A stretch of 64,000 nucleotides of DNA from a virus (Duplodnaviria; Caudoviricetes). Under the pieces are notes generated by a model, which had not been told where the DNA came from, did no database searches, and saw nothing but the letters and a program-made list of their open reading frames with translations. Position numbers and translations under genes: made by a program. Below, one piece after another: positions 45,136 through 61,233 of this stretch; the stretch's first letter is position 1, and each line of letters begins with the position of its first letter. The stretch lies in the IMG/VR virus record IMGVR_UViG_2936514734_000001, positions 160,001-224,000 of that record. One strand, given 5' to 3'.

Positions 45136-46113
45136 TCAAATAGGTAGAATCATCTCTCCAAGGTCTAGTGTCGGTGCTTCTGGTTGTTGAAGAGGTTCAG
45201 GTTGTTGAACATAAAAATGTGATTGCTCCATAGTCTGAACAGGTTGAACAGGCATAGGTTGCATAGGAACTTGAACAGATTCTACAGCTACAGTTTCTTC
45301 TACATTACCTTCTTCTATAGGAGTTACTTTTACAATCTCTGCATACACCCATGTAAATACAGAGTGCGCCAAGGCTCTTGGATTAGACTGAGTAGAAAGA
45401 GTAACAATCTGATTAGAGTACTTTTCTAGCTCCGCTGTAATTGTTTTGTTGTCTTTGTTTTCAGGAATAGATCCAATTACTACACCATTCTTATAAGCTG
45501 TATAAGTTTTCTTCATAGTGTGTGTATCTAGTTCTACATAGACATCAATCTCTCCACCAGACATAGCTTCATGCTTCATCTGTTGTACAGTAGTTGGGCA
45601 TTTGCTATCCAAGATTCCTTTTCTTGCTACGTTACAATTATCTTTAAAAGGGCATTCATGACAAGGTTTCTGTAATGCAATCTGCATTTCATATAATCGA
45701 TGACTTAATACATGCTCCTGTGGTGCAGGATCTTCAATCACATCATCAATAACTGGCTCGGGCGGAATTAACTTAGCTGGTTCTTGTACTGTCTTAGGTT
45801 GATTAGCTTGTACAGTATCCATTGCTTGCTTTACTAGTTCAGGCATCATTTCTGCTACCTTCTTCTGAACTAGTTCATTAATATCTACTTCTGGTGCAGC
45901 GGGTTGTTGTACAGCAGGTTCTACTGGAATAGATTGCTGTGTTTTTAATAATTGAACAAAGCCTTTTTGTAGTGCATCTGTTTGTTTAAGAATAGCTTCT
46001 GTTTGGCTGTTTAGTGCTTCTTTATATAAGTTAAATAGATCAATATTATTTGTCATTTGTAGTTCTCTCTCCTCATATTTCATGATAAAATAAGAGGGTA
46101 GTGCTGGTAACAC
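45136..46113 (-). CDS. hypothetical protein with a Cys cluster and Pro/Gln-rich linkers
   Basis: CHECPF..NC..........CP; start probably MTNN. Confidence 0.7.
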   Translation of the reverse strand: MLPALPSYFIMKYEERELQMTNNIDLFNLYKEALNSQTEAILKQTDALQKGFVQLLKTQQSIPVEPAVQQPAAPEVDINELVQKKVAEMMPELVKQAMDTVQANQPKTVQEPAKLIPPEPVIDDVIEDPAPQEHVLSHRLYEMQIALQKPCHECPFKDNCNVARKGILDSKCPTTVQQMKHEAMSGGEIDVYVELDTHTMKKTYTAYKNGVVIGSIPENKDNKTITAELEKYSNQIVTLSTQSNPRALAHSVFTWVYAEIVKVTPIEEGNVEETVAVESVQVPMQPMPVQPVQTMEQSHFYVQQPEPLQQPEAPTLDLGEMILPI

Positions 46114-46168
46114 TACCCTGGATTTGTTAGAGCTGGAACTCTAACTATAATTCAACTTTTTCTTAGAA

Positions 46169-49100
46169 TTACATGAAGCGAACAATAGCAGTTTCGCCAG
46201 TCTTGTCGAATGTTACTTCTTGAACAGTTAGGTTGAATACACCAGCATAGAAGTTTTGTGGTGCAAAACCGATATACGCTGCGTTTTCACGAGTTGCTTC
46301 CATTTCGTTAGCAACTTGAACACCTTTGTTTAAGAAGTACATCACAGGACGAACACTATCTTTTTGTTGCTCATGTTTAATTGCTACAGTCACTGTACGA
46401 TTAACTGCAACAGTTTTGTTTGCTAGTTTTACATTCGGGCTCAATACACGAACCTTAACTTCAGTTGCTGGAGTAGCTGGAACTACTTCTTCAACTAAAT
46501 TAGATTGTAAAAGAGTGAACGTAATATCTTGTGGAATGAAATAAGTTTCTGAGATCTTGCCTGAAATTAGAGAATTCATTTCTTCCGCAAACACTTCGAA
46601 TGGTAGAGCAATGAAACCGTTAGATGCTACGAAACGATATTCGCGGCCATCTTTACGGTGTTTTGCTGTACCATTTGTTTTTGTTCCGTTAATAACTAGA
46701 TATAATGCACCTACAAGGGCACGAACATCTACACCTAGTTCTTTAGCAGTTGCATACATTGCTTTACGTAATTCTGCTTTGTATAGATCACGAGCATTCT
46801 TGAATTGAGATAGAGTTGCATCGTAGTTGGCACGGATCTTAGCAGTTTTCTTAGCTTTAGTAAGTGATTTCATATTCTTTTTACGGAACACTCCTTGTTT
46901 CTTAAGTTCTGCTTCTGCTTGACGAACGAATTCTTTTTCAGCAGCTGAACGAACATTTTCTTTTTGAGAGTATGCATTGTAAAGAACAGCAACGTGTTGT
47001 TTTAATACATCTACATGAGAAGCTGGAACTTCCATGTTGTGCATTACACGAGCACGAATATTGTTCTTAGCAGTATTGCTGTGACTAGCTTGGAACTTAT
47101 TGCAAACTGCAACGATTGCTTCTTCAGCAAAACCAAAAGCCATTTCATATGAGCTATCAGCATAAGCAATACCATGTTCATCTTTCTGAGAAGCTAACCA
47201 TTGTGGCTTCTTCACTTCGAATCCAACTAGTTTGCCTTCACGTTTAACAGGAGCAAAGATGTTGCTATACACACCTTTATCTTCTTCTAACATTTCTTGC
47301 TTAGCTTCATCAGTTAATTCCATTTCAGCTTCTTCAAAGAAACGAGCATCAAAGTTAGCGAATAATGCTTTTACTAATGGCATTGATAGGTAAGCTCCAC
47401 CGTGTTTAGGACGGTCAATTTCCCAACGTCCAGCAGTACATAATGCTAATAGGTCAGCTTCAACACGTACACGCTCAGCTTCAGTTAATACTGTACGAGA
47501 TAGTAGATCAGTTAAAATCATTGCACGGTTAGCAATAACACCGATTAAGCTTGCTTCAATTGTATCTACAGTGATTTGTTGAGACATACTAGCAACTACT
47601 TCTAAGAATTCATGACGGCGAGCAACACCATTTACACCTTCAAACTCTTTTGGATCAAAGAAGATTTTGTTTCCTTTTACAATGAATCCGTTAACTTCTT
47701 TAGTTTCAGGTTCAACCGCTTTATCTTTAGCTGCTTCAGTCATGTAAGTTGGGCAACCTGTACCAAATTCAACAGCAACACCATTTTCATACTTAACATA
47801 AGCATCAATGAAAGGAAGTACTTCTTGCTCACCATATAAACCAGCTTCTTGACGCATACGAGCATTCACCATTAATTCGTCAAAGATAATGATTGAAGTA
47901 TCTCCATCATGGTCAGCACCTGCTTGTTGAGCAACAACCCAAGAGAAAGCATCAAAGAATGTAACACCTTGCCATAAACCTTTGTTTACATACTCCATGT
48001 ACTCTTTAGAGAATACTGCTTTAACAACTGGAATCTCATGAGTAACTGTTACTGGGAAACGAACAGAGATAGCATTACCTTCTTCAAGGAAGAATTGACC
48101 GTCTTTCTTAGATGGAGCAATTACCTCATATGGTTTAAGTACTGCATCTTCTTGTACTACTGTGTAACGTCCTTCTTTAGCTGCATTGTAGATAGCAAAC
48201 ACATCAGAGAACATGTAACGAGTACGAGCTTGTGTAGTGAATAGTTTAGAATCTAATAGTTTGTTAAGTTTCTTAACTGCTAGTCCTACGATTTCATCTT
48301 TGATATATTGCTCGTCTAAAACATCACCAAACTCTTGAGCAAGACGAACATAATCCACCGCGCCGAACTCATTCTCCGCTTCTTCATCAGCAGCATTAAG
48401 CATAGTTAAAAGATCACCAGTTAATTTATCTTCGATAGAGTTCTTAACAAATGATACGCTATTGTTGATACCTTGTTTTAATTCATCTAATGTTAATCCC
48501 ATTTGTTGTGTAGCTTGAGATGCAACCCAAATACCATCGTTACCATCTTTACGTTGACCAACAACGAATAATTGGAAGCCATTATCTTTAATATCTGCTA
48601 AGATATCCTCTGATTTGACCATACCTTCAGTAAGAATTAAGTCAGCACCAAATAGTTCACAAATTGGATCAAACTCTAGTGAAGCACCTTTAACTGCATT
48701 AGACACACGTAATTGGAATGAATCAAAGCTATTGATTACTCCTGCAAAACGTAGAGCTTCAGTTACACGAGAAGAGTGCCATCCTTGACCATCAGTTAAG
48801 TTACGAGTTAACAGTTCTTTTCTAGCATCTTCATTGTTCCAGTGGTTGAACTTTTCAACACCAGTGAATGCATTGTTTTGATCTAGAACGTTTAATAGGA
48901 ACTCTTGACCGTTAGCAATTTGAGCGTAGAACTCTTCGATTAAAGCAATAGTGAATTTCTCGCCATTGTTATTTGTGATAACGATATAAGCAGGCTTAAT
49001 TTCACCGATAACATTTTTCTCACCAGCGGCGAAGTATTCAACATTAGGATTGTGGCTGAATGTGCTTAATAATCCTTTATCAGCTTTAAGACCATTAGAT

Positions 49101-50554
49101 CCTGCTAACATAAAACGCTTATAAGACTTAGCAACATCCATTACGTTGTATCCAGTTGCTTTACCATCTACTTTGTGCTTCTTAGAATAAGCTCTTTCGT
49201 CTTGACCAGTACCTAGGAAGAACTCAATTACATCTTCAACATTCTTGAACCCAACAGCACCATTAGAACGAGCTTGAGACATTGATTTTGTGTATGTTTT
49301 GTAAGTGAATGACTCCATACCTGAAACGTCTGTATCTGCTTCTAATTGACCATCTTCTTTATGAACAACATTAACTTTAGAGAATACTGCTTTTAACACT
49401 GCACCATTGATTTCTTCACCAAATGGTAGAGAACCAGAACCATCAAATGTGCACATTTCATCAAGAACGATTGCTTGTTGTGGTTCTTTAATGCTTAATA
49501 CCATACCATCTTTGCTGTACTCTTTAACTACATTAATAGTTTGAGTCTTTTTGTTTTTCTTCATTGCAAAGCGGTAAGCCGCTAAGCTTCCAGACATCTT
49601 TTGGAATAAAGAGTGGATGCTATTTAAGTTTTCAATGTTTGTATCTTTAGCAATATAGAACTCTACATTGTCACGAAGAACGTATTTTGTTTCCTCATTT
49701 ACTTCGATTTGTTGCATTACTTGTCCAACTAACTCTTCTGTAGAGAAGTCACGTAGCTTACCTACTACTACATTGTCTACTACTACATAGATGTCATCCA
49801 TATTAAGAGCAGCCATTAGTACAGTCTCACGAGTCTTCTTACCTTTAACCTTAGCTTTAGCAGTAAGGCGTCCTTGTAGGTTAAGCTTGTCAAGAGCCTT
49901 GAACTCTGAAGACTCCATGAACTTAGGGAATAGACCAGGCACAACTACCATTAAGTAGTCGATGATTTGTTTACCATTAGCAGAAGCAAATTGGATAGAC
50001 TCCTCAGTACCATCTTCTTTAGTTACTACGAACTTGTTACGACGTGCATCTACTGTAAGTCCTTTAGCATTAGCACCAATGAATTGAGAGAATAGTGGTG
50101 CAGTTACACCCATGTTGAATAATGCTTTAGCGATTTGACCTGATGCATTTTGTACCACGTTTAAGTTAGCCTCTGTAAATACCACTGTTTTCTTTGTCAT
50201 TGTTACCACTCCTTGGTTATTAGTATTAGTGTTTGTAGTTGTAGCTGTAGTAGTTGTTGTCATAGTATTGTTCTCTCCCTTGATTGTGTTGTTTGATTGA
50301 ATAGTAGTGTTAGTAGTCATAGTTTCGTTCTCTCCTTTAGTGTTTGTTTCTTCTAATTGGTTGATCTCTTCTTGCATAGCCTTCATAGCGCCCATACCTG
50401 CTTCAAGTTGAGCGCTTAATGCAATATCAGTGTTGTCAAAGTCAACGCTTGCATAGATGTCTTGAATCATAGCTTCATTCTTAGCTACTTGCTCTCTTAA
50501 TTTGTTAATGCGGTCTTGAGTAGTGTTAATGTTTGTCATGATATGTCCTTTCAT
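46169..50554 (-). CDS. YonO-like / cellular-RdRP-family single-subunit RNA polymerase (double-psi beta-barrel)
   Basis: TDGQG, FQLR...KG, RFP, catalytic GADHDGD (DxDGD) and IDRPKHG in the order seen in QDE-1-type RdRPs and SPbeta YonO. Confidence 0.85.
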   Translation of the reverse strand: MKGHIMTNINTTQDRINKLREQVAKNEAMIQDIYASVDFDNTDIALSAQLEAGMGAMKAMQEEINQLEETNTKGENETMTTNTTIQSNNTIKGENNTMTTTTTATTTNTNTNNQGVVTMTKKTVVFTEANLNVVQNASGQIAKALFNMGVTAPLFSQFIGANAKGLTVDARRNKFVVTKEDGTEESIQFASANGKQIIDYLMVVVPGLFPKFMESSEFKALDKLNLQGRLTAKAKVKGKKTRETVLMAALNMDDIYVVVDNVVVGKLRDFSTEELVGQVMQQIEVNEETKYVLRDNVEFYIAKDTNIENLNSIHSLFQKMSGSLAAYRFAMKKNKKTQTINVVKEYSKDGMVLSIKEPQQAIVLDEMCTFDGSGSLPFGEEINGAVLKAVFSKVNVVHKEDGQLEADTDVSGMESFTYKTYTKSMSQARSNGAVGFKNVEDVIEFFLGTGQDERAYSKKHKVDGKATGYNVMDVAKSYKRFMLAGSNGLKADKGLLSTFSHNPNVEYFAAGEKNVIGEIKPAYIVITNNNGEKFTIALIEEFYAQIANGQEFLLNVLDQNNAFTGVEKFNHWNNEDARKELLTRNLTDGQGWHSSRVTEALRFAGVINSFDSFQLRVSNAVKGASLEFDPICELFGADLILTEGMVKSEDILADIKDNGFQLFVVGQRKDGNDGIWVASQATQQMGLTLDELKQGINNSVSFVKNSIEDKLTGDLLTMLNAADEEAENEFGAVDYVRLAQEFGDVLDEQYIKDEIVGLAVKKLNKLLDSKLFTTQARTRYMFSDVFAIYNAAKEGRYTVVQEDAVLKPYEVIAPSKKDGQFFLEEGNAISVRFPVTVTHEIPVVKAVFSKEYMEYVNKGLWQGVTFFDAFSWVVAQQAGADHDGDTSIIIFDELMVNARMRQEAGLYGEQEVLPFIDAYVKYENGVAVEFGTGCPTYMTEAAKDKAVEPETKEVNGFIVKGNKIFFDPKEFEGVNGVARRHEFLEVVASMSQQITVDTIEASLIGVIANRAMILTDLLSRTVLTEAERVRVEADLLALCTAGRWEIDRPKHGGAYLSMPLVKALFANFDARFFEEAEMELTDEAKQEMLEEDKGVYSNIFAPVKREGKLVGFEVKKPQWLASQKDEHGIAYADSSYEMAFGFAEEAIVAVCNKFQASHSNTAKNNIRARVMHNMEVPASHVDVLKQHVAVLYNAYSQKENVRSAAEKEFVRQAEAELKKQGVFRKKNMKSLTKAKKTAKIRANYDATLSQFKNARDLYKAELRKAMYATAKELGVDVRALVGALYLVINGTKTNGTAKHRKDGREYRFVASNGFIALPFEVFAEEMNSLISGKISETYFIPQDITFTLLQSNLVEEVVPATPATEVKVRVLSPNVKLANKTVAVNRTVTVAIKHEQQKDSVRPVMYFLNKGVQVANEMEATRENAAYIGFAPQNFYAGVFNLTVQEVTFDKTGETAIVRFM

Positions 50555-50885
50555 ATGCTCACATTTATTTGGTCAGGAGCTAGACCGAAATTTGGTGGTC
50601 GTTATAGGGGGTGGGCATCGAAAGATCCACCTATAAGAACCCATATATACCACCTTGCGCCTCAAAAAATATAAAAAAAATTACCCTATATAGGGCATCA
50701 GGTCAGGAAGAAGGGAAGTCATCAATCACTAGGTCAGAAACCTAGCGGTCGGTGGCTTCTTTTTTATTTGTTGCAAAAGTCAGGAGTGAAGGAGCAGGGC
50801 ATGAAGTGTAAGTATTTCGTTGAGAAAATTTAGGAAAGTGGTTACGGTATGGCGTGAGAACAGGAGCAGGGAAGGAGGACAGTGA

Positions 50886-51137
50886 ATGCAATACAGTCCA
50901 CATGAACAAGAGCTATTAAAGAATTGGGTAGTAAGTCAGGAATCAGCAAGGGTGGGAAGAAAGACCACTGTATCTTGTCTTCAAATGCCTAATGGTTATG
51001 AAGTACTTGGAACATCAGCTTGTGTAAATCCAGAACAGTACGACTATGATCTTGGTGTCTTTTATGCTACACAGGATGCGCTTAAAAAAGTTGAAGAGAT
51101 TGTTGGTTATCTTGAACATCAACATTTATTCAGTTGA
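50886..51137 (+). CDS. phage N4 gp49/Sf6 gp66-like small protein (possible nucleotide sponge)
   Basis: TTV.CL...NGYEV.GTSACVNPE.YD...G...A motif. Confidence 0.75.
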   Translation: MQYSPHEQELLKNWVVSQESARVGRKTTVSCLQMPNGYEVLGTSACVNPEQYDYDLGVFYATQDALKKVEEIVGYLEHQHLFS

Positions 51138-51285
51138 GGCATTGAGTCAGAAGTAGAGAGCGTGGGAACAATCAGTGCTCTTAAAAGGTTTTATGTTTTC
51201 AAATGAACCGCTCTTAAAAACCCCTATAATCACAACCCCTTATATAGAAGAAAACCAACCACAAAACAATTAGGAGGAATACAGA

Positions 51286-51558
51286 ATGGATTTTGGACAA
51301 GCATTAATTGCATTGAAAAATGGAGAGAAAGTTGCTCGTAAAGGGTGGAATGGAAAAGGCATGTGGATCGTATTAATGCCTTCACTTTACTTAGAAGCGG
51401 GTGTAGTAAATGGCAGAACATCTAAACATCTAGGTCAAGGTGTGGACTTAGACTCACAACCTTATATCGCAATGTTTACTGCTGATAAGAAATGGCAACC
51501 AGGTTGGTTAGCATCTCAAGCAGATGTACTGGCTGAAGATTGGGAGATTGTTGCCTAA
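51286..51558 (+). CDS. DUF2829 family protein (Tad2-like signal sponge)
   Basis: MDFGQAL.ALK.G.KVARKGWNGKGM ... W.ASQAD.LAEDW. Confidence 0.85.
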   Translation: MDFGQALIALKNGEKVARKGWNGKGMWIVLMPSLYLEAGVVNGRTSKHLGQGVDLDSQPYIAMFTADKKWQPGWLASQADVLAEDWEIVA

Positions 51559-51600
51559 CACACTAAGATATCAAGTCAGGAGAAAAAGGAGGCCGAAGAA

Positions 51601-54316: not shown

Positions 54317-54769
54317 GTGGCAAGTTTAGCCGGATTAGGAGTTAGTGCATTAAAAACAATTGGCTCCGTTGGTAAAAGAAAAGCATTAACAGCGGGTGGT
54401 CTAGCCTTTGGTGCAGATACCGCTATGAATCTATATGGTGGAGATGATCTAGGAACCTCTGTCATGAAAGCTGGTGTGACGGGTGTTATGGCCGCTTCTA
54501 ACCCTATGCTTTACGGGGGATTAACAGCGGCTAGTCTAGCAACAGATGCTTACTGGGGAATACAACAATTTAACTACCAGAAAAAACAATGGTGGAATGC
54601 TCAATATGCTTACAACAATGAAGTCGGCGGTAACTATGTCGATACTCAGCGAGCACAAACTATGAGACAAGCAGCTGTACAAGCTATTCAAGGAAGTAAG
54701 ATGAATGCCCGAAGTGCGCTAGGTGGAGAAGCAAGAATACTTAATCCGTATTCAACAAGAAGATATTAA
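54317..54769 (+). CDS. Gly/Ala-rich hypothetical virion-associated protein
   Basis: TQRAQTMRQAAVQAI...LGGEA tail; directly upstream of terL. Confidence 0.6.
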   Translation: MASLAGLGVSALKTIGSVGKRKALTAGGLAFGADTAMNLYGGDDLGTSVMKAGVTGVMAASNPMLYGGLTAASLATDAYWGIQQFNYQKKQWWNAQYAYNNEVGGNYVDTQRAQTMRQAAVQAIQGSKMNARSALGGEARILNPYSTRRY

Positions 54770-54782
54770 AGGAGAAAATAGC

Positions 54783-57674
54783 ATGAGTAAAATCACTAAA
54801 TATGATCAAGAAATGCTTGATATTATACGTGATCCCGTTAAATGGACGGAACATCATCTAGGTGAAAAACCTCGTTGGTATCAAGAGCAGATACTTCGCC
54901 ATCCACATCACCGAAAAGTGTTAAGATGTGGTCGGCGTATCGGTAAATGTATAGAAGAAGATCAGCGGATTATTAATCCCAACACAGGAGAATACAAGTC
55001 GGTAGGCGAGTTATATAAAGCTCAACTTGATGGAAGCCCAACACCGCTACTAACTTTAAATGAGTCTTACCAATTAGAAAATAGTGAAGCTTTCTTCATT
55101 GAAGATAATGGTGTTAAGGATACATTTGCTGTTGTTACAAAACATGGTGCAAGAGTTGTTTTAACTGGAAACCATCCTGTTTTAACAGTAGATGGCTGGA
55201 AAGAGGTTGATGCACTCCGAATAGGAGAAAGTATCGCCACTCCTAAATTGCTACCTATTTACGGACAGAAGCAAGTAGACAAGCATAAGTTACGTATCTT
55301 AGCTTATATGTTAGCTGCAGGAAGATTTAATAAGGACAGTATTAGTTTCCAAGCTCGTTATGAGGGTGTTAGAGAAACCATGCTAGAATCTTGTGAACAT
55401 CTTGGTATTAATACATACAGAGAGCGTCACAAGAAAGCTACTATTTACCTTATTAATTTTAGCCAATTTGAATTTTATCGAGAAATTCAAGAAAAGAAAA
55501 TCCCATCTTTCATCTATGAGCTAGACAGAGAGCATTTAGTTTTCTTCTTAGGTAGCTTATATTCAGCGGGTGGATGGTTCTTTGCAGGACGTATTTGTGA
55601 AATTGGATATGCTACAAAAAATCGCAAGTTCGCTTTAGACCTCAAACATTTACTTCTACGCTTTGGTATTCAAGCAAACCTTCTACAAAAGGAAATGAAT
55701 GATTCAGTTTATTACCATCTTATGATTTATCATCGTTCATCAATCCTATTATTCCTCGAACATTTATCTACTCCTGAACGTGATTATGAAGAAATTCAAG
55801 CGCGTGCTTTAGAAATGACCTCTTCAGAGCCAACTTTACCTAAAGAAGTATGGAAGTATATCGAAGAAGAACGTATTGCCAAAGGCTTGAAAAAAGCTGA
55901 TGTAGTAGGTAAAGGTAACCGTCGTTATCGTACTGAAAAAGGAATCTCATTGAGCAATGCTCGTGTTTATTCTGAAAACCTTCAGTCTGCTATGCTTCAC
56001 GATCTTATTAACTCAGATGTGTTATGGGAAGAAGTAGTAGACATTGTTCCTCTTGGTAAGAGACAAACATACGATGTGTTTGTTCCAGAGACACACAACT
56101 TAGTAGTCGAAGACATATTGGTTCATAACACATGGACAATGTGTGCTCATATGCTATGGGTTGCTTTTACTTGTAATGGCGGTACTAGTATTAGAAAAGG
56201 AGCCGCTTGTGTAGTTGCTACCCCATATGACAACCAAGCACGCTTAATCTTTGACCAACTAAAAACCTTCATCGACAATAACCCCGTTTTAGAAGAATCC
56301 GTAAAATCCATTACTAAAAACCCATACGTAATTGAATTCAAAAACAAATCCATTATTCGTCTATTTACTGCAGGTACTCGTTCAGGTGCAGAGGGTGGTT
56401 CTCTACGTGGACAACGTGCGGACTGGCTTTATATGGACGAAGTGGACTATATGAGTGATAAAGATTTTGAGTCTATTTACGCTATTGTCAACGAAGCTCC
56501 AGATCGTATCGGTACAATGATTGCATCTACACCGACTGGACGACGTGGGATGTTTTATAAAACATGTACACAAATGAAGCTTAATCAAGATGTAAAAATG
56601 AACGAAAAAAACATCTATGATATGAGTACGTATGACCGTAAATCAGCGGAAGGTTGGGCAGAGTTCTACTTCCCTACAATGGTTAACCCGGAATGGGGAC
56701 CAAAAATGGAGCGGGAACTTCGTAAACTCTTCTCTGAAAACGCATATGAGCATGAGGTACTTGCAGAGTTTGGTACTGAAATGGTCGGGGTGTTCAATAA
56801 AGAATACATTGACGAGGCATCAAGCATTGGTTACAACTATACTACCTCTCCTGCACATCATGGTCCTATTGCTATCGGGGTTGACTGGGATAAGTTCGGT
56901 AACGCTACACAAATTGTTGTTACTCAATATAATCCATTCGAACCGAGACGATTACGGCCAGAGCTTGGAGAAACAGAACAAAAATATGGTAGATTCCAGG
57001 TTATTAACCGAATTGAAATTCCTAAAGGGGAATTCACATACGATAATGCGGTTAAAAAGATTATTGAATTAGATGGAATTTATAATCCGTTTGCTATCTA
57101 TTGTGACCGAGGTGCTGGTGAATACCAAATCGAGCTTCTACGTAAAACACTAGGTGATAGAGTAAAAGGTGTTCATTTAGGAAGTTCTCAATTAGTACGA
57201 GATCCACATAGCAGAGAATTTGATAAGAAGCCACTTAAACCATTCATTGTTAACCAAACAGTGTTAATGCTGGAACGTGGTCAAATTCGTATCCCTCACC
57301 GTGACATAGATGAAACATTAGCAAGACAAATGACTAACTATCAAGTAGTCCGCTTCAGTGCTAAAACAGGTGAAGCAACATATACCGATGTAGATGAACA
57401 CGCATTAGATGGCTTAATGTTTGGTTTACTTGCATTTATTAATGAAAAACCTGAGTTAGCTGCTACTGTTATCGAGAAGCCTCATGCAAAAACGATTGGC
57501 AAGATTAAAAAGTCATTTACTGATCCGTTTAAGTTAAAAGAAGAAGTTAGATCCACCGATTCTGAATTACGCCAAAAACCTAAAAATACAAAAGTTCGTC
57601 AAAGAGCTAGTAAGGGTTTTGGATGGGGAAAACGTGGTGGAAATATGAAAATGCCGTCTCGCGGAGGATGGTAA
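54783..57674 (+). CDS. terL: terminase large subunit containing an intein
   Basis: YQ motif, CGRRIGK/T Walker A (split by the intein), LRG, YMDEVDY Walker B, ASTP, GVDW nuclease motif, DEHALDG; ATG 54783 after AAAGGAG. Confidence 0.93.
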   Translation: MSKITKYDQEMLDIIRDPVKWTEHHLGEKPRWYQEQILRHPHHRKVLRCGRRIGKCIEEDQRIINPNTGEYKSVGELYKAQLDGSPTPLLTLNESYQLENSEAFFIEDNGVKDTFAVVTKHGARVVLTGNHPVLTVDGWKEVDALRIGESIATPKLLPIYGQKQVDKHKLRILAYMLAAGRFNKDSISFQARYEGVRETMLESCEHLGINTYRERHKKATIYLINFSQFEFYREIQEKKIPSFIYELDREHLVFFLGSLYSAGGWFFAGRICEIGYATKNRKFALDLKHLLLRFGIQANLLQKEMNDSVYYHLMIYHRSSILLFLEHLSTPERDYEEIQARALEMTSSEPTLPKEVWKYIEEERIAKGLKKADVVGKGNRRYRTEKGISLSNARVYSENLQSAMLHDLINSDVLWEEVVDIVPLGKRQTYDVFVPETHNLVVEDILVHNTWTMCAHMLWVAFTCNGGTSIRKGAACVVATPYDNQARLIFDQLKTFIDNNPVLEESVKSITKNPYVIEFKNKSIIRLFTAGTRSGAEGGSLRGQRADWLYMDEVDYMSDKDFESIYAIVNEAPDRIGTMIASTPTGRRGMFYKTCTQMKLNQDVKMNEKNIYDMSTYDRKSAEGWAEFYFPTMVNPEWGPKMERELRKLFSENAYEHEVLAEFGTEMVGVFNKEYIDEASSIGYNYTTSPAHHGPIAIGVDWDKFGNATQIVVTQYNPFEPRRLRPELGETEQKYGRFQVINRIEIPKGEFTYDNAVKKIIELDGIYNPFAIYCDRGAGEYQIELLRKTLGDRVKGVHLGSSQLVRDPHSREFDKKPLKPFIVNQTVLMLERGQIRIPHRDIDETLARQMTNYQVVRFSAKTGEATYTDVDEHALDGLMFGLLAFINEKPELAATVIEKPHAKTIGKIKKSFTDPFKLKEEVRSTDSELRQKPKNTKVRQRASKGFGWGKRGGNMKMPSRGGW
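54948..56129 (+). mobile_element. 394-aa intein with a degenerate LAGLIDADG homing-endonuclease domain
   Basis: Starts C(IEED), block B LTGNHP, block F YDVFV..THN, ends VHN followed by Thr. Confidence 0.92.
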
Positions 57675-59118: not shown

Positions 59119-61233
59119 TTGAGTATGTTAGAACGAATTCGTAGAGGAGTTCGATTAAGAACTGTTAGCGAAGCACCTTCTTCCGCTAAGCGTGATCCTA
59201 AGAAGACAGCCGTTACTCGTTTAGGTCAAGCTGTTAAAAGCGCTGGTGGTGGAGGAGACTTTGAAGATTCACCAGTAGACCTAGCTGAAATTGGTCGTGC
59301 ATATTACACTGACAGTTATATTCGTAGAGCAGTGGATAAACACTCAGCTCTAATGTTTAAAAATGGATGGGAACTATCCGGCAAAAATGATCAGGCAGTT
59401 GAGTACGTTTGGACTCGACTTAAACTAATGGCTGAAGGTACAGGGCAAAGTATTGATTCCTTGCTACAAGAAATTGCCGACAACTTAATACTTTATGGTA
59501 ATGCTTATGTGGTAAAAGCTCGCGCAAAAAACAATAGTAATCCAAGTGGCCTAACCGCTACAGGATACACGTCAAATAAACCTGTTGCTGGATATTTCGT
59601 TCTTCCCACCCAACAAGTAACAATAAGTCGTGATGATGTAGGTAAGATAATTGCTTATCAACAATCAAGCGGTACAGGTGGAGATGGTGTTGAATTTAAA
59701 CCTGAAGACATTATTCATTTTGCTTATCGTAAACCGAGTGGACGAGCTTATGGTGTACCGTTTATCTACAATGCCTTAGATGATGTTAAATTACTTCGTC
59801 AGATTGAGGAAAATGTAGCCCGTTTAATTTACCGCAATTTATTCCCCCTTTACTTATACAAGGTAGGTATAGATAAGCCAGGGTTTGAAGCAACTGAAGA
59901 CGAGATTGAAGATTTACGTGAAGAGATTCGTAATATTCCTGTTGATGGTGCTTTAGTTGTCCCTGAGAGACACAATATTGAAGTAGTAGGTTCTCAAGGA
60001 CAAGCAATTGATGCTAATGGGTACCTTAAATATTTCCGTGAGCGTGTATTCTCTGGTTTAGGAGTGAGTGACACGATTATGGGTATTTCAGGAACCGCTA
60101 ATAAATCTACCTCTGATAATCAATCTTCTGACCTTAACGATACAGTTAAGGACTTCCAAAAAACCTTCTCTGATGTAGCCAAATTCGCTATTATCAATGA
60201 ACTTCTTTTTGAGGGTGGATACGATCCAACTCTAAACCCCGACGATGAAATTGACTTTGTTTTCCACGAAATTGAATTCGATGCAAAAATCAAACGCGAA
60301 AATCATGTTGTTCAATTGTTTATGCAAAACAGTATTGTCTTTGAAGAGATGCGTCAATTACTTGGTTATGACATTCAAGTTGATGAATCACGCCTATACA
60401 CAAATATGTTTAACGCTAGTTCTGCAACGGGTGATGCAGGAACAGAAGGAGCAGAGGCTGCAGCTAATCAAGGCAACAACAAAGATCAACCAGAGAACCA
60501 GAGCGGAAAACAAACTAGTCCAGGTAAACCTAAAACATCTGAAACAAGCAGTAAGAGTGCTTCAGTTTCTGAAAACACAAAATTGACCGAGCAAGACCAA
60601 CTGGTTACTTTGACTGAGACATTACAAGTTGGTGAGTTCACTAAGAAAGTTGAACAGCACTGGTTAGAGACGATGGAAGATGTACAGGTTAGAGTCCGAC
60701 GCAATGAAGATACAGATATGGTCACTTCGTTTACTACCGGATTAATAAGTGGACTAATTAGGGACCAAGTAAATCCTTTTGTTGAGCGGGCCTTTTTACA
60801 TGGATTCCAAGAAGGATTAATCCAAATGGGGAACGACTTAACGAAAATACAAAGTGGCGATATACAAGTAGCGGTGTCAAAACATAACAAAGCATTTGAA
60901 CGATTAATGAATGACATTACTCGCTTAGTATCTAGTTGTTATGAAAAAGACAATCCAGCGGCTCATATTACACATTCATTTACAGCTAATCGCTATCGTA
61001 TTGGATTCATTGCTAAACGTATTGCTTATGAAGCCTATAACTATGGAGTTGCTCTATCAGCTGAAAAAAGTAAAAGAGATAGAGTCTACGTTAAGCACAA
61101 ACCAAACTGTTGTAAGAAATGCCTAACTGCTTCCTCAGAAATCATCTTATCTGATGGTTGGAGAGAGCAGATCCCACCTCACCATACCAACTGCGAATGC
61201 ACTATTGTTCTCAATAATAAGGAGGTCATCTAA
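59119..61233 (+). CDS. portal protein with a C-terminal MuF-like (minor head) domain
   Basis: LYGNAY, F.PEDIIHF, YGVP and GLGV portal motifs; C-terminal CCKKC and IPPHHTNCEC resemble MuF P.HPNCRC. Confidence 0.82.
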   Translation: MSMLERIRRGVRLRTVSEAPSSAKRDPKKTAVTRLGQAVKSAGGGGDFEDSPVDLAEIGRAYYTDSYIRRAVDKHSALMFKNGWELSGKNDQAVEYVWTRLKLMAEGTGQSIDSLLQEIADNLILYGNAYVVKARAKNNSNPSGLTATGYTSNKPVAGYFVLPTQQVTISRDDVGKIIAYQQSSGTGGDGVEFKPEDIIHFAYRKPSGRAYGVPFIYNALDDVKLLRQIEENVARLIYRNLFPLYLYKVGIDKPGFEATEDEIEDLREEIRNIPVDGALVVPERHNIEVVGSQGQAIDANGYLKYFRERVFSGLGVSDTIMGISGTANKSTSDNQSSDLNDTVKDFQKTFSDVAKFAIINELLFEGGYDPTLNPDDEIDFVFHEIEFDAKIKRENHVVQLFMQNSIVFEEMRQLLGYDIQVDESRLYTNMFNASSATGDAGTEGAEAAANQGNNKDQPENQSGKQTSPGKPKTSETSSKSASVSENTKLTEQDQLVTLTETLQVGEFTKKVEQHWLETMEDVQVRVRRNEDTDMVTSFTTGLISGLIRDQVNPFVERAFLHGFQEGLIQMGNDLTKIQSGDIQVAVSKHNKAFERLMNDITRLVSSCYEKDNPAAHITHSFTANRYRIGFIAKRIAYEAYNYGVALSAEKSKRDRVYVKHKPNCCKKCLTASSEIILSDGWREQIPPHHTNCECTIVLNNKEVI

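Follow-up and report, generated by a model that had tools for sequence, protein, structure and literature searches.

A predicted YonO-class RNA polymerase with conserved nested start sites in a Bacillus-type jumbo phage-plasmid

Introduction

Does the very long reading frame that opens the leftward genes of this viral DNA encode an RNA polymerase, and if so, which genes would it transcribe? The window (64,000 nucleotides, positions 160,001 to 224,000 of IMG/VR record IMGVR_UViG_2936514734_000001) comes from a 239-kb Bacillus-type jumbo phage-plasmid of the pBtic235 group, which carries terminase, portal, and helicase genes. The original prediction placed here a YonO-like enzyme running a phage-specific transcription programme, perhaps in several isoforms. 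Our analysis suggests that the gene probably encodes an active single-chain two-barrel polymerase serving as the non-virion transcriptase of a temperate jumbo phage-plasmid of the pBtic235 type, a reading that draws on sequence comparison and a structural model. Phage enzymes of this class have been described before, and this gene adds a member. What look new here are the conserved nested Shine-Dalgarno (SD)–ATG starts, together with N-terminal modules that differ between close relatives.

The Gene and Its Product

The reading frame predicted at 46169–50554 (minus strand) exists, with 1461 codons open up to an ATG at 50554 and a stop codon at 46169–46171, but the first start has to be corrected. 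One relative has ACG instead of the ATG at 50554, and the codons that follow this ATG double as an AAAGGA Shine-Dalgarno sequence, N6 ahead of an ATG at 50539. For these reasons M6 (window 50539) is taken as the probable first start, which places the gene at 46169..50539 (minus strand, ORF list and translation) with a longest likely product of 1456 aa. A pattern scan finds a terminator-like hairpin directly past the stop codon (46095..46119, minus strand), and the polymerase would be made from its own short, terminator-bounded transcription unit.

Family Assignment and Predicted Structure

The polymerase itself has no Pfam or PHROG match (Pfam hmmscan, E ≤ 1). A six-frame search aligns PF05183 (RdRP) to residues ~798–1025 with 17.1 bits (E 1.3e-4), below the gathering cut-off of 23.8 bits. 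Among the 39 aligned homologues, 24 match PF05183 at E ≤ 0.01, the best at 1.8e-18. The only match in the control set is in B. subtilis, also below the cut-off, and we take it to be yonO. When the family profile was searched against the PDB, QDE-1 and RDR2 were the only polymerases found, with the DxDGD loop aligned to that of QDE-1 at a whole-sequence E of 0.0033. Profile alignment to SPbeta YonO (hhalign 98.4%, E 6.8e-15, 400 columns) covers SxSQxR, TDG, F.R..VKG, R.P, and DxDGD, and the alignment to gp99 of phage 0305phi8-36 is stronger still (99.7%, E 3.9e-26, 534 columns). Run on phage genomes, the family HMM recovers gp99 at 5e-25 and, in SPbeta, YonO at 1.9e-12.

The AlphaFold model (pLDDT 89.4, pTM 0.81) has both barrels in one chain and an overall fold that can be superposed on solved members. 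Foldseek matches it to QDE-1 (2e-15), RDR2 (6e-15), phi14:2 gp66 from a crAss-like phage (4e-7), and P23-45 gp64 (2e-4). VIA-align gives Z 25.7 for RDR2 (607 residues, rmsd 5.6), ~23 for QDE-1, 15.9 for P23-45 gp64, and 8.4 for gp66, while likeness to multisubunit RNAPs is limited to ~140–230 residues around the barrel (Z ~7.5). The PF05183 matches of the relatives, the profile matches to YonO and gp99, and the superposition on RDR2 and QDE-1 (Z 23–26) are three independent lines of support for assignment to the YonO/eukaryotic-RdRP class of single-chain, two-barrel (double-psi beta-barrel) RNA polymerases. The original prediction had named this family and proposed comparing the protein with YonO and QDE-1 by HMM and by structure; both comparisons agree with it. 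Two other identities were considered. A multisubunit beta-prime/Rpb1 subunit is contradicted by the lack of any PF00623 match in the genome, where the control was matched in 14 of 14 genomes. For a T7-like single-subunit RNAP a Pol I-like right hand would be expected, and the fold seen with Foldseek and VIA-align is clearly of another type. PF00940 has no match in the genome and likewise none in the positive-control set.

The chain divides into five parts, all on the minus strand. A predicted helical module at residues 6 to ~70 (50345..50539), the putative coiled coil of the original prediction, is unrelated or absent in close relatives, as judged from the N-termini of 28 homologues, and gives only a weak DUF5798 match with hmmscan. 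It is followed by the T/N-rich linker described below and then by a lineage-specific alpha/beta domain at residues ~120–420 (49295..50197; AlphaFold pLDDT 87.7, pTM 0.70), for which we find no recognisable solved fold (best Foldseek PDB E 0.046; best Z 3.6 in a wide VIA-align search). The two-barrel core and helical C-terminal region (residues ~421–1340, 46535..49294) are delimited by the model, Foldseek, and hhalign. A confidently predicted beta-rich domain (residues ~1341–1461, 46172..46534), with strands at model residues 986–1081, closes the chain; it lies beyond the alignable part of the solved polymerases, whose alignments stop near model residue 957–965.

All five motifs reported originally are located in the reading frame, within a core that also carries SxSQxR: TDGQG (residues 587–591), FQLRVSNAVKG (613–623, the FQLR..KG motif), RFP (832–834), the metal-binding loop GADHDGD (879–885; 47900..47920, minus strand), and IDRPKHG (1046–1052). 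The 39-homologue alignment contains 16 invariant positions, with the Asp triad and R616/K622 in the set; among them are D588, G589, R616, K622, R832, P834, A880, D881, D883, G884, D885, D1047, K1050, and G1052. In a larger set of 54 homologues A880, D881, D883, G884, and D885 stay invariant. The metal-binding loop, identified by this invariance and by alignment, corresponds to GGDYDGD of QDE-1 and DNDGD of YonO. The second-barrel FQLRVSNAVKG aligns with FMVRLPWVKG of YonO and weakly with IQGRMGSAKG of QDE-1. Judged by sequence, the catalytic residue set is complete, and we consider it highly probable, with the model in agreement, that the protein is an active nucleotide polymerase of the YonO/RdRP class.

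Nested In-Frame Starts

T/N-rich repeats with internal ribosome-binding-site–ATG combinations had been noticed originally, and both the linker and its repeated units are there. The stretch spans residues ~70–118 (50198..50344, minus strand) and is defined by sequence, repeat, enrichment, and conservation. It contains two GGAGAGAAC-N6-ATG units that make up a direct repeat of 35 nt (identity 80%, spacing 57 nt); a third SD–ATG unit reads AAGGAGTGGTAACA-ATG. The resulting in-frame internal starts, all on the minus strand, are M79 (ATG 50320–50318), M98 (50263–50261), and M119 (50200–50198), the last being the core start, 'MTKKTVVF'. These three sites (codons 79, 98, and 119) are packed into 0.36 kb; in 62 of the genome's long ORFs the base rate is 0.119 in-frame SD–ATG sites per kb, and the remaining 4 kb of the polymerase gene contain no further internal one.

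Of 11 loci, 10 conserve three or four in-frame SD–ATG starts in their DNA. In the relatives the sites are in frame and constantly spaced, and the nucleotides of the SD are retained also where the encoded residues diverge. This lends more support to the earlier suggestion that alternative starts give isoforms, although the isoforms themselves we infer from DNA conservation; on balance we think them real. With three or four nested starts in use, the cell would then produce the core enzyme from M119, plus extended forms in which a flexible T/N-rich tether links the core to a lineage-variable N-terminal module. A less likely reading is that M119 alone is translated and that the SD–ATG repeats are leftovers of duplicated initiation sites, or ribosome-loading sites that boost translation of the core. 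The units do resemble tandem duplications, the relatives P0016, P0019, and P0024 have little or no N-terminal extension, and the NCBI annotation of the pBtic235 orthologue begins at the core start. Against M119-only translation, the 60–160 codons upstream are open in frame at every locus examined, even at 36% GC, and encode distinct 70–130-residue modules in different relatives; moreover, each strong SD–ATG of the region is in frame.

Genome Context and Control Region

The polymerase gene is the first of a ~143-kb leftward block and faces the packaging/head operon; the rightward block there encodes the portal and a large terminase with an intein. GC skew flips sign at this strand switch, and the synteny is kept in 9 related loci, all the relatives examined, in accord with the divergent position first described. 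Between the two blocks lies a control region (50555..51600), delimited by sequence, box counts, a weight matrix, and conservation. It holds a palindromic hairpin (50682–50697), seven (A/G)GTCAG(G/A)A boxes, all on the plus strand (50572, 50702, 50733, 50779, 50935, 51146, and 51575), and, on the minus strand near 50640–50650, a candidate extended -10 element, TGGTATATAT, read by eye. The leader is conserved as well. A weight matrix of the box, with relatives as its sole training data, puts six of its nine genome-wide hits in this region; the array is confined to one locus in the genome, and its boxes keep position and orientation in the 9 related loci. It is possibly a cluster of late promoters pointing into the rightward operon; a packaging site, an array bound by a regulator, or a signal acting at the RNA level would fit equally well.

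The genome has no match to sigma-70 region 2 (PF04542), and the family profile finds no second copy of the polymerase in it. A 2453-aa protein of the tail cluster bears RYP and SGDFDGD motifs. The leftward strand carries ~10 copies of a uniform hairpin, GGGGCTAACGCCCC, with a T-run, reminiscent of polymerase-specific terminators.

Comparison with Known Polymerases

The closest named phage relative is gp99 of Bacillus phage 0305phi8-36 (YP_001429828.1, 1218 aa), annotated in its record as 'hypothetical DNA-directed RNA polymerase; similar to Pfam05183' and cited as a YonO-like jumbo-phage enzyme by Iyer et al. 2021 (PMC7824862). It likewise comes from a ~220-kb Bacillus jumbo phage and combines both barrels in a single chain, the family HMM match spanning profile positions 15–957. 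However, it is 240 residues shorter, shares ~18% identity with the polymerase, and gives no tblastn match; its gene adjoins the right terminal repeat and does not face the packaging operon, and 0305phi8-36 lacks the GTCAGGA box array. Among Bacillus members, biochemical characterisation is limited to YonO of SPbeta (NP_046615.1, 839 aa; Forrest et al. 2017, PMC5467207), which has a homologous core and also comes from a temperate Bacillus phage. Identity is ~20%, and BLASTP aligns the DxDGD stretch alone. YonO is 620 residues shorter and has no counterpart of the 300-residue N-terminal domain, the nested-start linker, or the C-terminal beta domain; its gene lies upstream of the SPbeta late operon and reads in the same direction, whereas the gene here is divergent. 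A sigma-like partner is seen in neither SPbeta nor this element (tested here with PF04542).

The orthologue is HIS92_RS26030 of pBtic235 (WP_000182705.1) from Bacillus thuringiensis serovar israelensis, with 76% identity over the whole core and the same neighbours; the same gene occurs on further 220–245-kb Bacillus/Cytobacillus 'plasmids'. pBtic235, a proven inducible jumbo myovirus-plasmid (PMC8026635), has the nested starts and the box array (L005/L006) as in the present element, while its orthologue is annotated as a 'hypothetical protein' that lacks the N-terminal helical module. The pBtic235 papers PMC9700832 and PMC8026635 nowhere mention an RNA polymerase. In the published RNA-seq tables the orthologue is absent from the genes changed by mitomycin C, and its neighbours on both sides are among them.

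Template and Target Genes

QDE-1 (2J7N, 5FSW, 7Y7x) and RDR2 (7W82, 7ROZ, 7EU0), the best structural matches, share the catalytic loop, but identity is 12–15%, the N- and C-terminal domains differ, and both are eukaryotic enzymes of RNA silencing with RNA as template. They raise the prospect of an RNA- or single-strand-templated polymerase making dsRNA or antisense RNA, with a role in regulation or in conflicts with the host or with rival elements, instead of serving as the mRNA transcriptase of the phage. That the nearest solved structures are RNA-dependent, that relatives match a Pfam family called 'RdRP', and that QDE-1 has been solved with DNA and RNA templates (PDB entry titles) are consistent with such an activity. 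We nevertheless regard it as very improbable: the characterised members from bacterial viruses, YonO, P23-45 gp64, and phi14:2 gp66, are all DNA-dependent transcriptases (PMC5467207, PMC10770324), and YonO strongly discriminates against RNA templates (PMC5467207). Apart from the tail protein the genome offers no other candidate for sigma-independent transcription, and the conserved place beside the late operon suits a transcriptase.

The protein is likely to be a DNA-templated phage transcriptase, which, like YonO, would make RNA on double-stranded DNA and transcribe phage genes without host sigma factors. Template-dependent NTP polymerisation that relies on the Asp triad has been shown for YonO (PMC5467207) and for gp64 and gp96 of P23-45 (PMC10770324). 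YonO, strictly DNA-dependent and processive, transcribes the late genes of SPbeta as a single operon from a single start site (PMC5467207). P23-45 gp64 is itself pre-early and serves early and some middle genes, the late genes not being served by it (PMC10770324). There are two precedents, and YonO, with its late genes, is one. The most likely target here would be the ~95-kb rightward late block that starts in the adjacent control region, and we put the chances that this block is the main target at about even. Of the original prediction, the position facing the packaging operon stands; activity, DNA template, and target genes we infer, where for YonO activity and late-gene role are proven.

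The P23-45 precedent suggests another division of labour, which we consider rather unlikely: an early/middle-gene polymerase for the leftward replication/accessory block in a two-polymerase cascade. A tail-fused virion polymerase would arrive together with the DNA and transcribe a handful of pre-early genes, including the polymerase gene, with late genes left to host RNAP or another factor. P23-45 has such an enzyme in gp96, a virion RNAP fused to the tape measure (Chaban et al. 2024, PMC10770324), and the SGDFDGD of the tail protein shares its DFDGD signature. The position of the gene at the head of the leftward block, the copies of the hairpin with T-run on that strand, and the match over 497 residues to the non-virion polymerase gp64 (8F72) all fit a cascade, although gp64, with 616 aa, is structurally more distant from the polymerase than RDR2 or QDE-1. 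On the other hand, gp64 and gp96 are thought to be paralogues, whereas the family profile finds no similarity between the polymerase and the tail protein. We found no conserved promoter-like motif dispersed over the leftward block, and the one motif array with strong conservation and a direction is oriented towards the rightward operon. The element is also temperate, and induction from the plasmid state proceeds without an injected enzyme; together with the LexA-controlled operon described in pBtic235 (PMC9700832), this means that host RNAP must be able to start the programme.

Returning to a late-block transcriptase with nested isoforms, we can offer, as a speculative combination, that exchangeable N-terminal modules re-target or regulate the core, that the enzyme starts at the locus-specific GTCAGGA boxes and transcribes the whole ~95-kb late block as one unit, that the tail protein is a tail-fused virion polymerase, and that in some relatives a hammerhead ribozyme in the leader trims the polymerase mRNA. 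If this is true, the isoforms and the tail-fused virion polymerase would give a temperate phage-plasmid a two-polymerase programme largely independent of host RNAP.

The Polymerase Gene and Its Neighborhood

The source record (a single virus record of 239,374 bp and 36% GC, complete by CheckV estimate, with the window at bases 160001–224000) carries a 1,461-codon ORF on the minus strand at window 46169–50554. All five motifs that the original prediction had read as marks of a YonO/RdRP-class RNA polymerase are found in it: TDGQG (residues 587–591), FQLRVSNAVKG (613–623), RFP (832–834), GADHDGD (879–885), and IDRPKHG (1046–1052). The strand-switch position claimed for the gene is exact, and the sign of the GC skew flips at the same point. 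Terminator-like hairpins flank the gene on both sides (pattern scan). To its right on the plus strand lie small genes, then an intein-interrupted large terminase (54723–57674, +) and the portal gene (59119–61233, +). Directly downstream of it is the gene for a 325-aa protein that matches no Pfam or PHROG family (45136–46113, −), and a Dda/PIF1-type helicase gene lies to the left on the minus strand. Nine related loci share the gene order, the lowest polymerase identity among them being 46%: a Gp49-like gene, small genes, and the intein-terminase lie on one side, and the polymerase, a 250–380-aa protein, and in most cases the helicase lie opposite.

Two of these neighbors deserve mention in their own right. 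The 325-aa downstream protein keeps its position in every relative (244–380 aa) and is a candidate polymerase partner or factor. The terminase intein, with a LAGLIDADG homing endonuclease (PF14890 and PF14528), is present in all relatives fetched.

Family Assignment

As a lone query, the polymerase matches no Pfam family and no PHROG family. A phmmer search of PDB sequences returned one low-complexity chance match only, tblastn against 50,697 phage records gave nothing at 1e-3 and one chance match (0.3) at E ≤ 1, and megablast of 12 kb against phages gave no match. The search for related loci likewise found none with the polymerase alone, and the family alignment was needed as query. At E ≤ 0.001, only 61 cluster representatives were found among 1.84 billion proteins, and the 26 close homologues (46%–95% identity) come mostly from 220–246-kb contigs of Bacillus, Priestia, Cytobacillus, and Gottfriedia. 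An alignment of 39 homologues has 16 invariant residues, including D588, G589, R616, K622, R832, and P834; the A880-D881-x-D883-G884-D885 loop, D1047, K1050, and G1052 are also invariant.

Pfam PF05183 (RdRP) is matched by 24 of these 39 homologues, and the window protein itself falls below the Pfam threshold (17.1 bits against a cut-off of 23.8). Among PDB sequences, QDE-1 and RDR2 are the sole polymerases matched by the family profile, and the DxDGD loop aligns with QDE-1 (profile search, whole-sequence E 0.0033). Profile comparison with SPbeta YonO gives a probability of 98.4% (E 6.8e-15) across 400 columns, with all shared motifs among them, and with gp99 of Bacillus phage 0305phi8-36 it gives 99.7% (E 3.9e-26, 534 columns); a separate HMM search of phage genomes is concordant. 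The proposed membership in the YonO/RdRP family is thus supported by the matches to YonO and gp99, by the PF05183-matching relatives, and by superposition of the predicted structure.

Distant homologues, at ~23% identity, occur on many ~190–230-kb "plasmids" and viral contigs of Bacillales (NZ_CP035189.1, NZ_CP014843.1, NZ_CP118109.1, NZ_CP048288.1, and others; loci L003, L004, and L011–L020), with hosts that include Bacillus licheniformis, B. halotolerans, Paenibacillus, Alicyclobacillus, and Oceanobacillus. A broad set of Bacillales jumbo phage-plasmids may have a YonO-like polymerase as a characteristic gene.

Predicted Structure

The AlphaFold model of residues 380–1461 (54 sequences) has a pLDDT of 89.4 and a pTM of 0.81. 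Foldseek ranks QDE-1 (2e-15) and RDR2 (6e-15) at the top, followed by gp66 of phi14:2 (a crAss-like phage; 4e-7), gp64 of Thermus phage P23-45 (2e-4), and then the largest subunits of multisubunit RNA polymerases. With VIA-align, the model superposes on maize RDR2 at Z 25.7 (607 residues, rmsd 5.6), on QDE-1 at ~23, on gp64 at 15.9, on gp66 at 8.4, and on the barrel region of Pol I/II/III at ~7.5. Among predicted viral structures, the best matches are phage proteins named RdRP (2e-19), with gp99 (A7KVB1) and gp64 lower. The pair of double-psi beta-barrels, whose absence would have spoken against a polymerase of this class, is found in the model and its structural superpositions.

Residues 119–420 are also predicted as a confident fold (pLDDT 87.7). 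This region has no PDB match (Foldseek best E 0.046), a result that does not establish a new fold, and an exhaustive VIA-align search reached a best Z of 3.6, to PH-like scraps. The last 120 residues are beta-rich and lie past the end of every structural alignment.

Predicted Nested Starts and Swappable N-Terminal Modules

The N-terminus of the polymerase is built in three layers: a variable module, a T/N-rich linker, and a conserved core that opens with MT(K/N)KxVVF. The module is wholly unlike between close relatives, being predicted helical in the window protein; elsewhere its place is taken by another domain that has a CxxC motif, by one of 130 residues, or by nothing. Four SD-ATG sites are found in the window gene (M6, M79, M98, and M119), the second and third of them within a 35-nt direct repeat. 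In the six closest loci, one SD-ATG stands 35 or 36 codons ahead of a conserved LFSQF motif and a second stands 53–57 codons ahead of it wherever linker length allows; in the relative L055 a first start alone is present, 56 codons ahead. All strong SD-ATGs of the N-terminal region in the closest loci are in frame, and more distant loci retain two or three such starts; of 11 loci in all, one has a single start.

One could hold that M119, where the core begins, is the sole start in use. The Shine-Dalgarno nucleotides are kept while the residues they encode vary (QGV, KGE, KKE, and MEEV), which argues for selection on a DNA or RNA signal. Strong internal in-frame SD-ATGs number three in 0.36 kb, whereas the long ORFs of the same genome (62 counted) have 0.119 per kb, and the N-terminal extensions of 21 homologues contain the peptide footprint [KQ]G[EV]x2-3M 42 times, their remaining residues not once. 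From this pattern in the sequence, we infer that the nested starts would provide for programmed production of the core enzyme together with longer forms bearing the variable module. The idea that alternative starts could yield isoforms thereby gains comparative support from the conserved in-frame SD-ATGs, with the isoforms themselves still putative.

A junction peptide, P-A-(V/S/L)-(D/V)-E-T-(S/T)-(A/G)-A, precedes the T/N-rich linker at the N-termini of seven homologues with otherwise unrelated modules (P0003, P0004, P0006, P0015, P0017, P0018, and P0020) and is absent from the window protein; it could mark a site of processing or act as a signal in the DNA. Several relatives also have an extra gene of 110–177 aa that separates the polymerase gene from the array of boxes in the divergent control region (L053:6390–6866, L054:6364–6801, L055:6338–6790, L057:6589–7122, L060:3549–3881, and L059:1208–3673). 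It is accompanied in one relative by a 651-aa PcfJ-like gene and is absent from the window and from pBtic235. Taken together, the extra genes and the variable modules identify an insertion hot spot on the polymerase gene's 5′ side.

Leader RNA and Divergent Control Region

The 5′ leader of the polymerase gene in three relatives contains a candidate type III hammerhead ribozyme just upstream of the polymerase start (L055:6832–6886, L054:6834–6888, and L053:6897–6951, all +). These are full-length matches with the canonical CUGAUGA...GAAA core, and their RF00008 scores (48.2, 40.6, and 35.7 bits) all lie below the gathering score of 48.5. The window and pBtic235-like loci have an unrelated conserved leader in its place, for which we found no Rfam match, no hammerhead in the window, and no covariation among four sequences.

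The sequence (A/G)GTCAG(G/A)A occurs seven times on the plus strand at window 50572–51575 and 41 times in the rest of the genome on both strands. A weight matrix trained on relatives only places six of its nine genome-wide matches in the control region (16–27 bits), compared with one or two matches in shuffled genomes. Position and orientation of the array are kept in nine relatives, as four to eight co-oriented boxes with a consensus of about GGnAWnA(A/G)GTCAGGA(G/A)nnAA (L005:5583–7065, L053:4967–6256, L054:5330–6969, L055:5049–6904, L057:5969–6506, L058:7016–7967, L059:150–1059, and L060:2619–3407 among them). In all pBtic235-type relatives, the array holds the same place, found nowhere but in the divergent stretch that separates polymerase gene from packaging operon. 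One box, antisense to the polymerase, abuts its start codon and overlaps the leader as GGTCAGGAGCTAGACC; other boxes lie immediately 5′ of ribosome-binding sites that serve the first rightward genes.

Promoters used by the phage enzyme are one candidate role for these boxes; a pac site for packaging, sites for a regulator, and a signal at the RNA level are the others. The GTCAGGA box was not found upstream of yonK in SPbeta, near gp99 in 0305phi8-36, or in distant relatives; a link to the family in general cannot be drawn. A conserved TGGTATATAT upstream of the polymerase gene resembles, by eye, an extended −10 element; a sigma-70 pattern scan gave fewer sites than in shuffles.

A search for a promoter motif spread through either gene block, by 9-mer enrichment in intergenic gaps, yielded none; its finds were limited to hairpins resembling terminators and a local motif resembling an operator. 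The leftward strand has about ten hairpins of nearly the same sequence, (G)GGGCTAACGCCC(C), most with a T-run after them (window 43416, 31035, 24813, 18138, and 8608, −; genome 158007, 148875, 126322, 107967, and 104123). They are unusually uniform for intrinsic terminators and may be a polymerase-specific terminator or processing signal. Intergenic gaps of the leftward block repeatedly contain the motif TTCTAGTGGA (window 31854, 28296, 26528, 23476, 22563, and 5213, −), which often lies within an inverted repeat, TCCACT...AGTGGA, preceded by AT-rich sequence, and looks like an operator or local promoter element.

Which Genes May Be Transcribed

In SPbeta, the late genes form one operon that YonO reads from a single start (PMC5467207). 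In P23-45, a tail-fused virion enzyme first makes the mRNA for gp64, which then transcribes early and middle genes (PMC10770324). The two precedents point different ways. We favor the late block as target, at roughly even chances, because this temperate element is induced out of a plasmid state, because the plus-strand block runs uninterrupted from the control region to the record's end and on to ~67 kb, and because the one directional motif array with strong conservation points into that block. Searches of the genome found no sigma-70 region 2, no Rpb1 domain 2 (beta-prime), and no second copy of the family; a PF00940 search gave no match, but neither did its control. A 2,453-aa protein of the tail cluster carries RYP and SGDFDGD motifs, and the family profile shows no similarity to its DFDGD region (probability 0.2%). 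Polymerase and tail protein offer a link to a possible two-polymerase scheme.

The pBtic235 Orthologue and Wider Significance

By tblastn, the 235,425-bp plasmid pBtic235 of B. thuringiensis israelensis and replicons like it carry orthologues at 76% identity, each annotated as "hypothetical protein." One element of the pBtic235 type resides in the commercial mosquito-control strains of this bacterium. pBtic235 is a proven mitomycin-inducible jumbo myovirus kept as a circular plasmid (PMC8026635, PMC9700832); an RNA polymerase is mentioned in neither paper. Its orthologue, RS26030 (NZ_CP051859.1 201624–205676; L068:3218–7270), and the neighboring RS26035 appear in no differential-expression list in the tables of PMC9700832, an absence with several possible causes. 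Mitomycin C induces the rightward genes RS26000–26025, at log2 +2.3 to +2.9, and more strongly, at +4.4, the helicase RS26040, and the genes flanking this pair on both sides are mitomycin C-induced and repressed by GIL01 gp7 (PMC9700832).

Overall, the observation behind the original prediction is confirmed and its interpretation supported. Single-chain two-barrel RNA polymerases are thought to be akin to the ancestor of all cellular RNA polymerases, and to our knowledge very few have been studied (YonO, QDE-1 and the RDRs, phi14:2 gp66, and P23-45 gp64 and gp96). The box array is a concrete candidate for the promoter type of YonO-like enzymes. 0305phi8-36 gp99 has been annotated since sequencing as a "hypothetical DNA-directed RNA polymerase" similar to Pfam05183 and has been cited as a YonO-like enzyme by Iyer et al. 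(PMC7824862). With the class known and a jumbo-phage member long annotated, the polymerase adds a member to an existing class. With the assignment, a protein conserved among pBtic235-type jumbo phage-plasmids and labeled "hypothetical protein" receives a name, and what the analysis adds beyond this is the conserved nested-start/variable-module design and the promoter candidate. Inducible pBtic235, with its existing RNA-seq data, is a tractable system in which the prediction is directly testable, and conserved nested starts with swappable N-terminal modules would be an unusual route to polymerase diversification.
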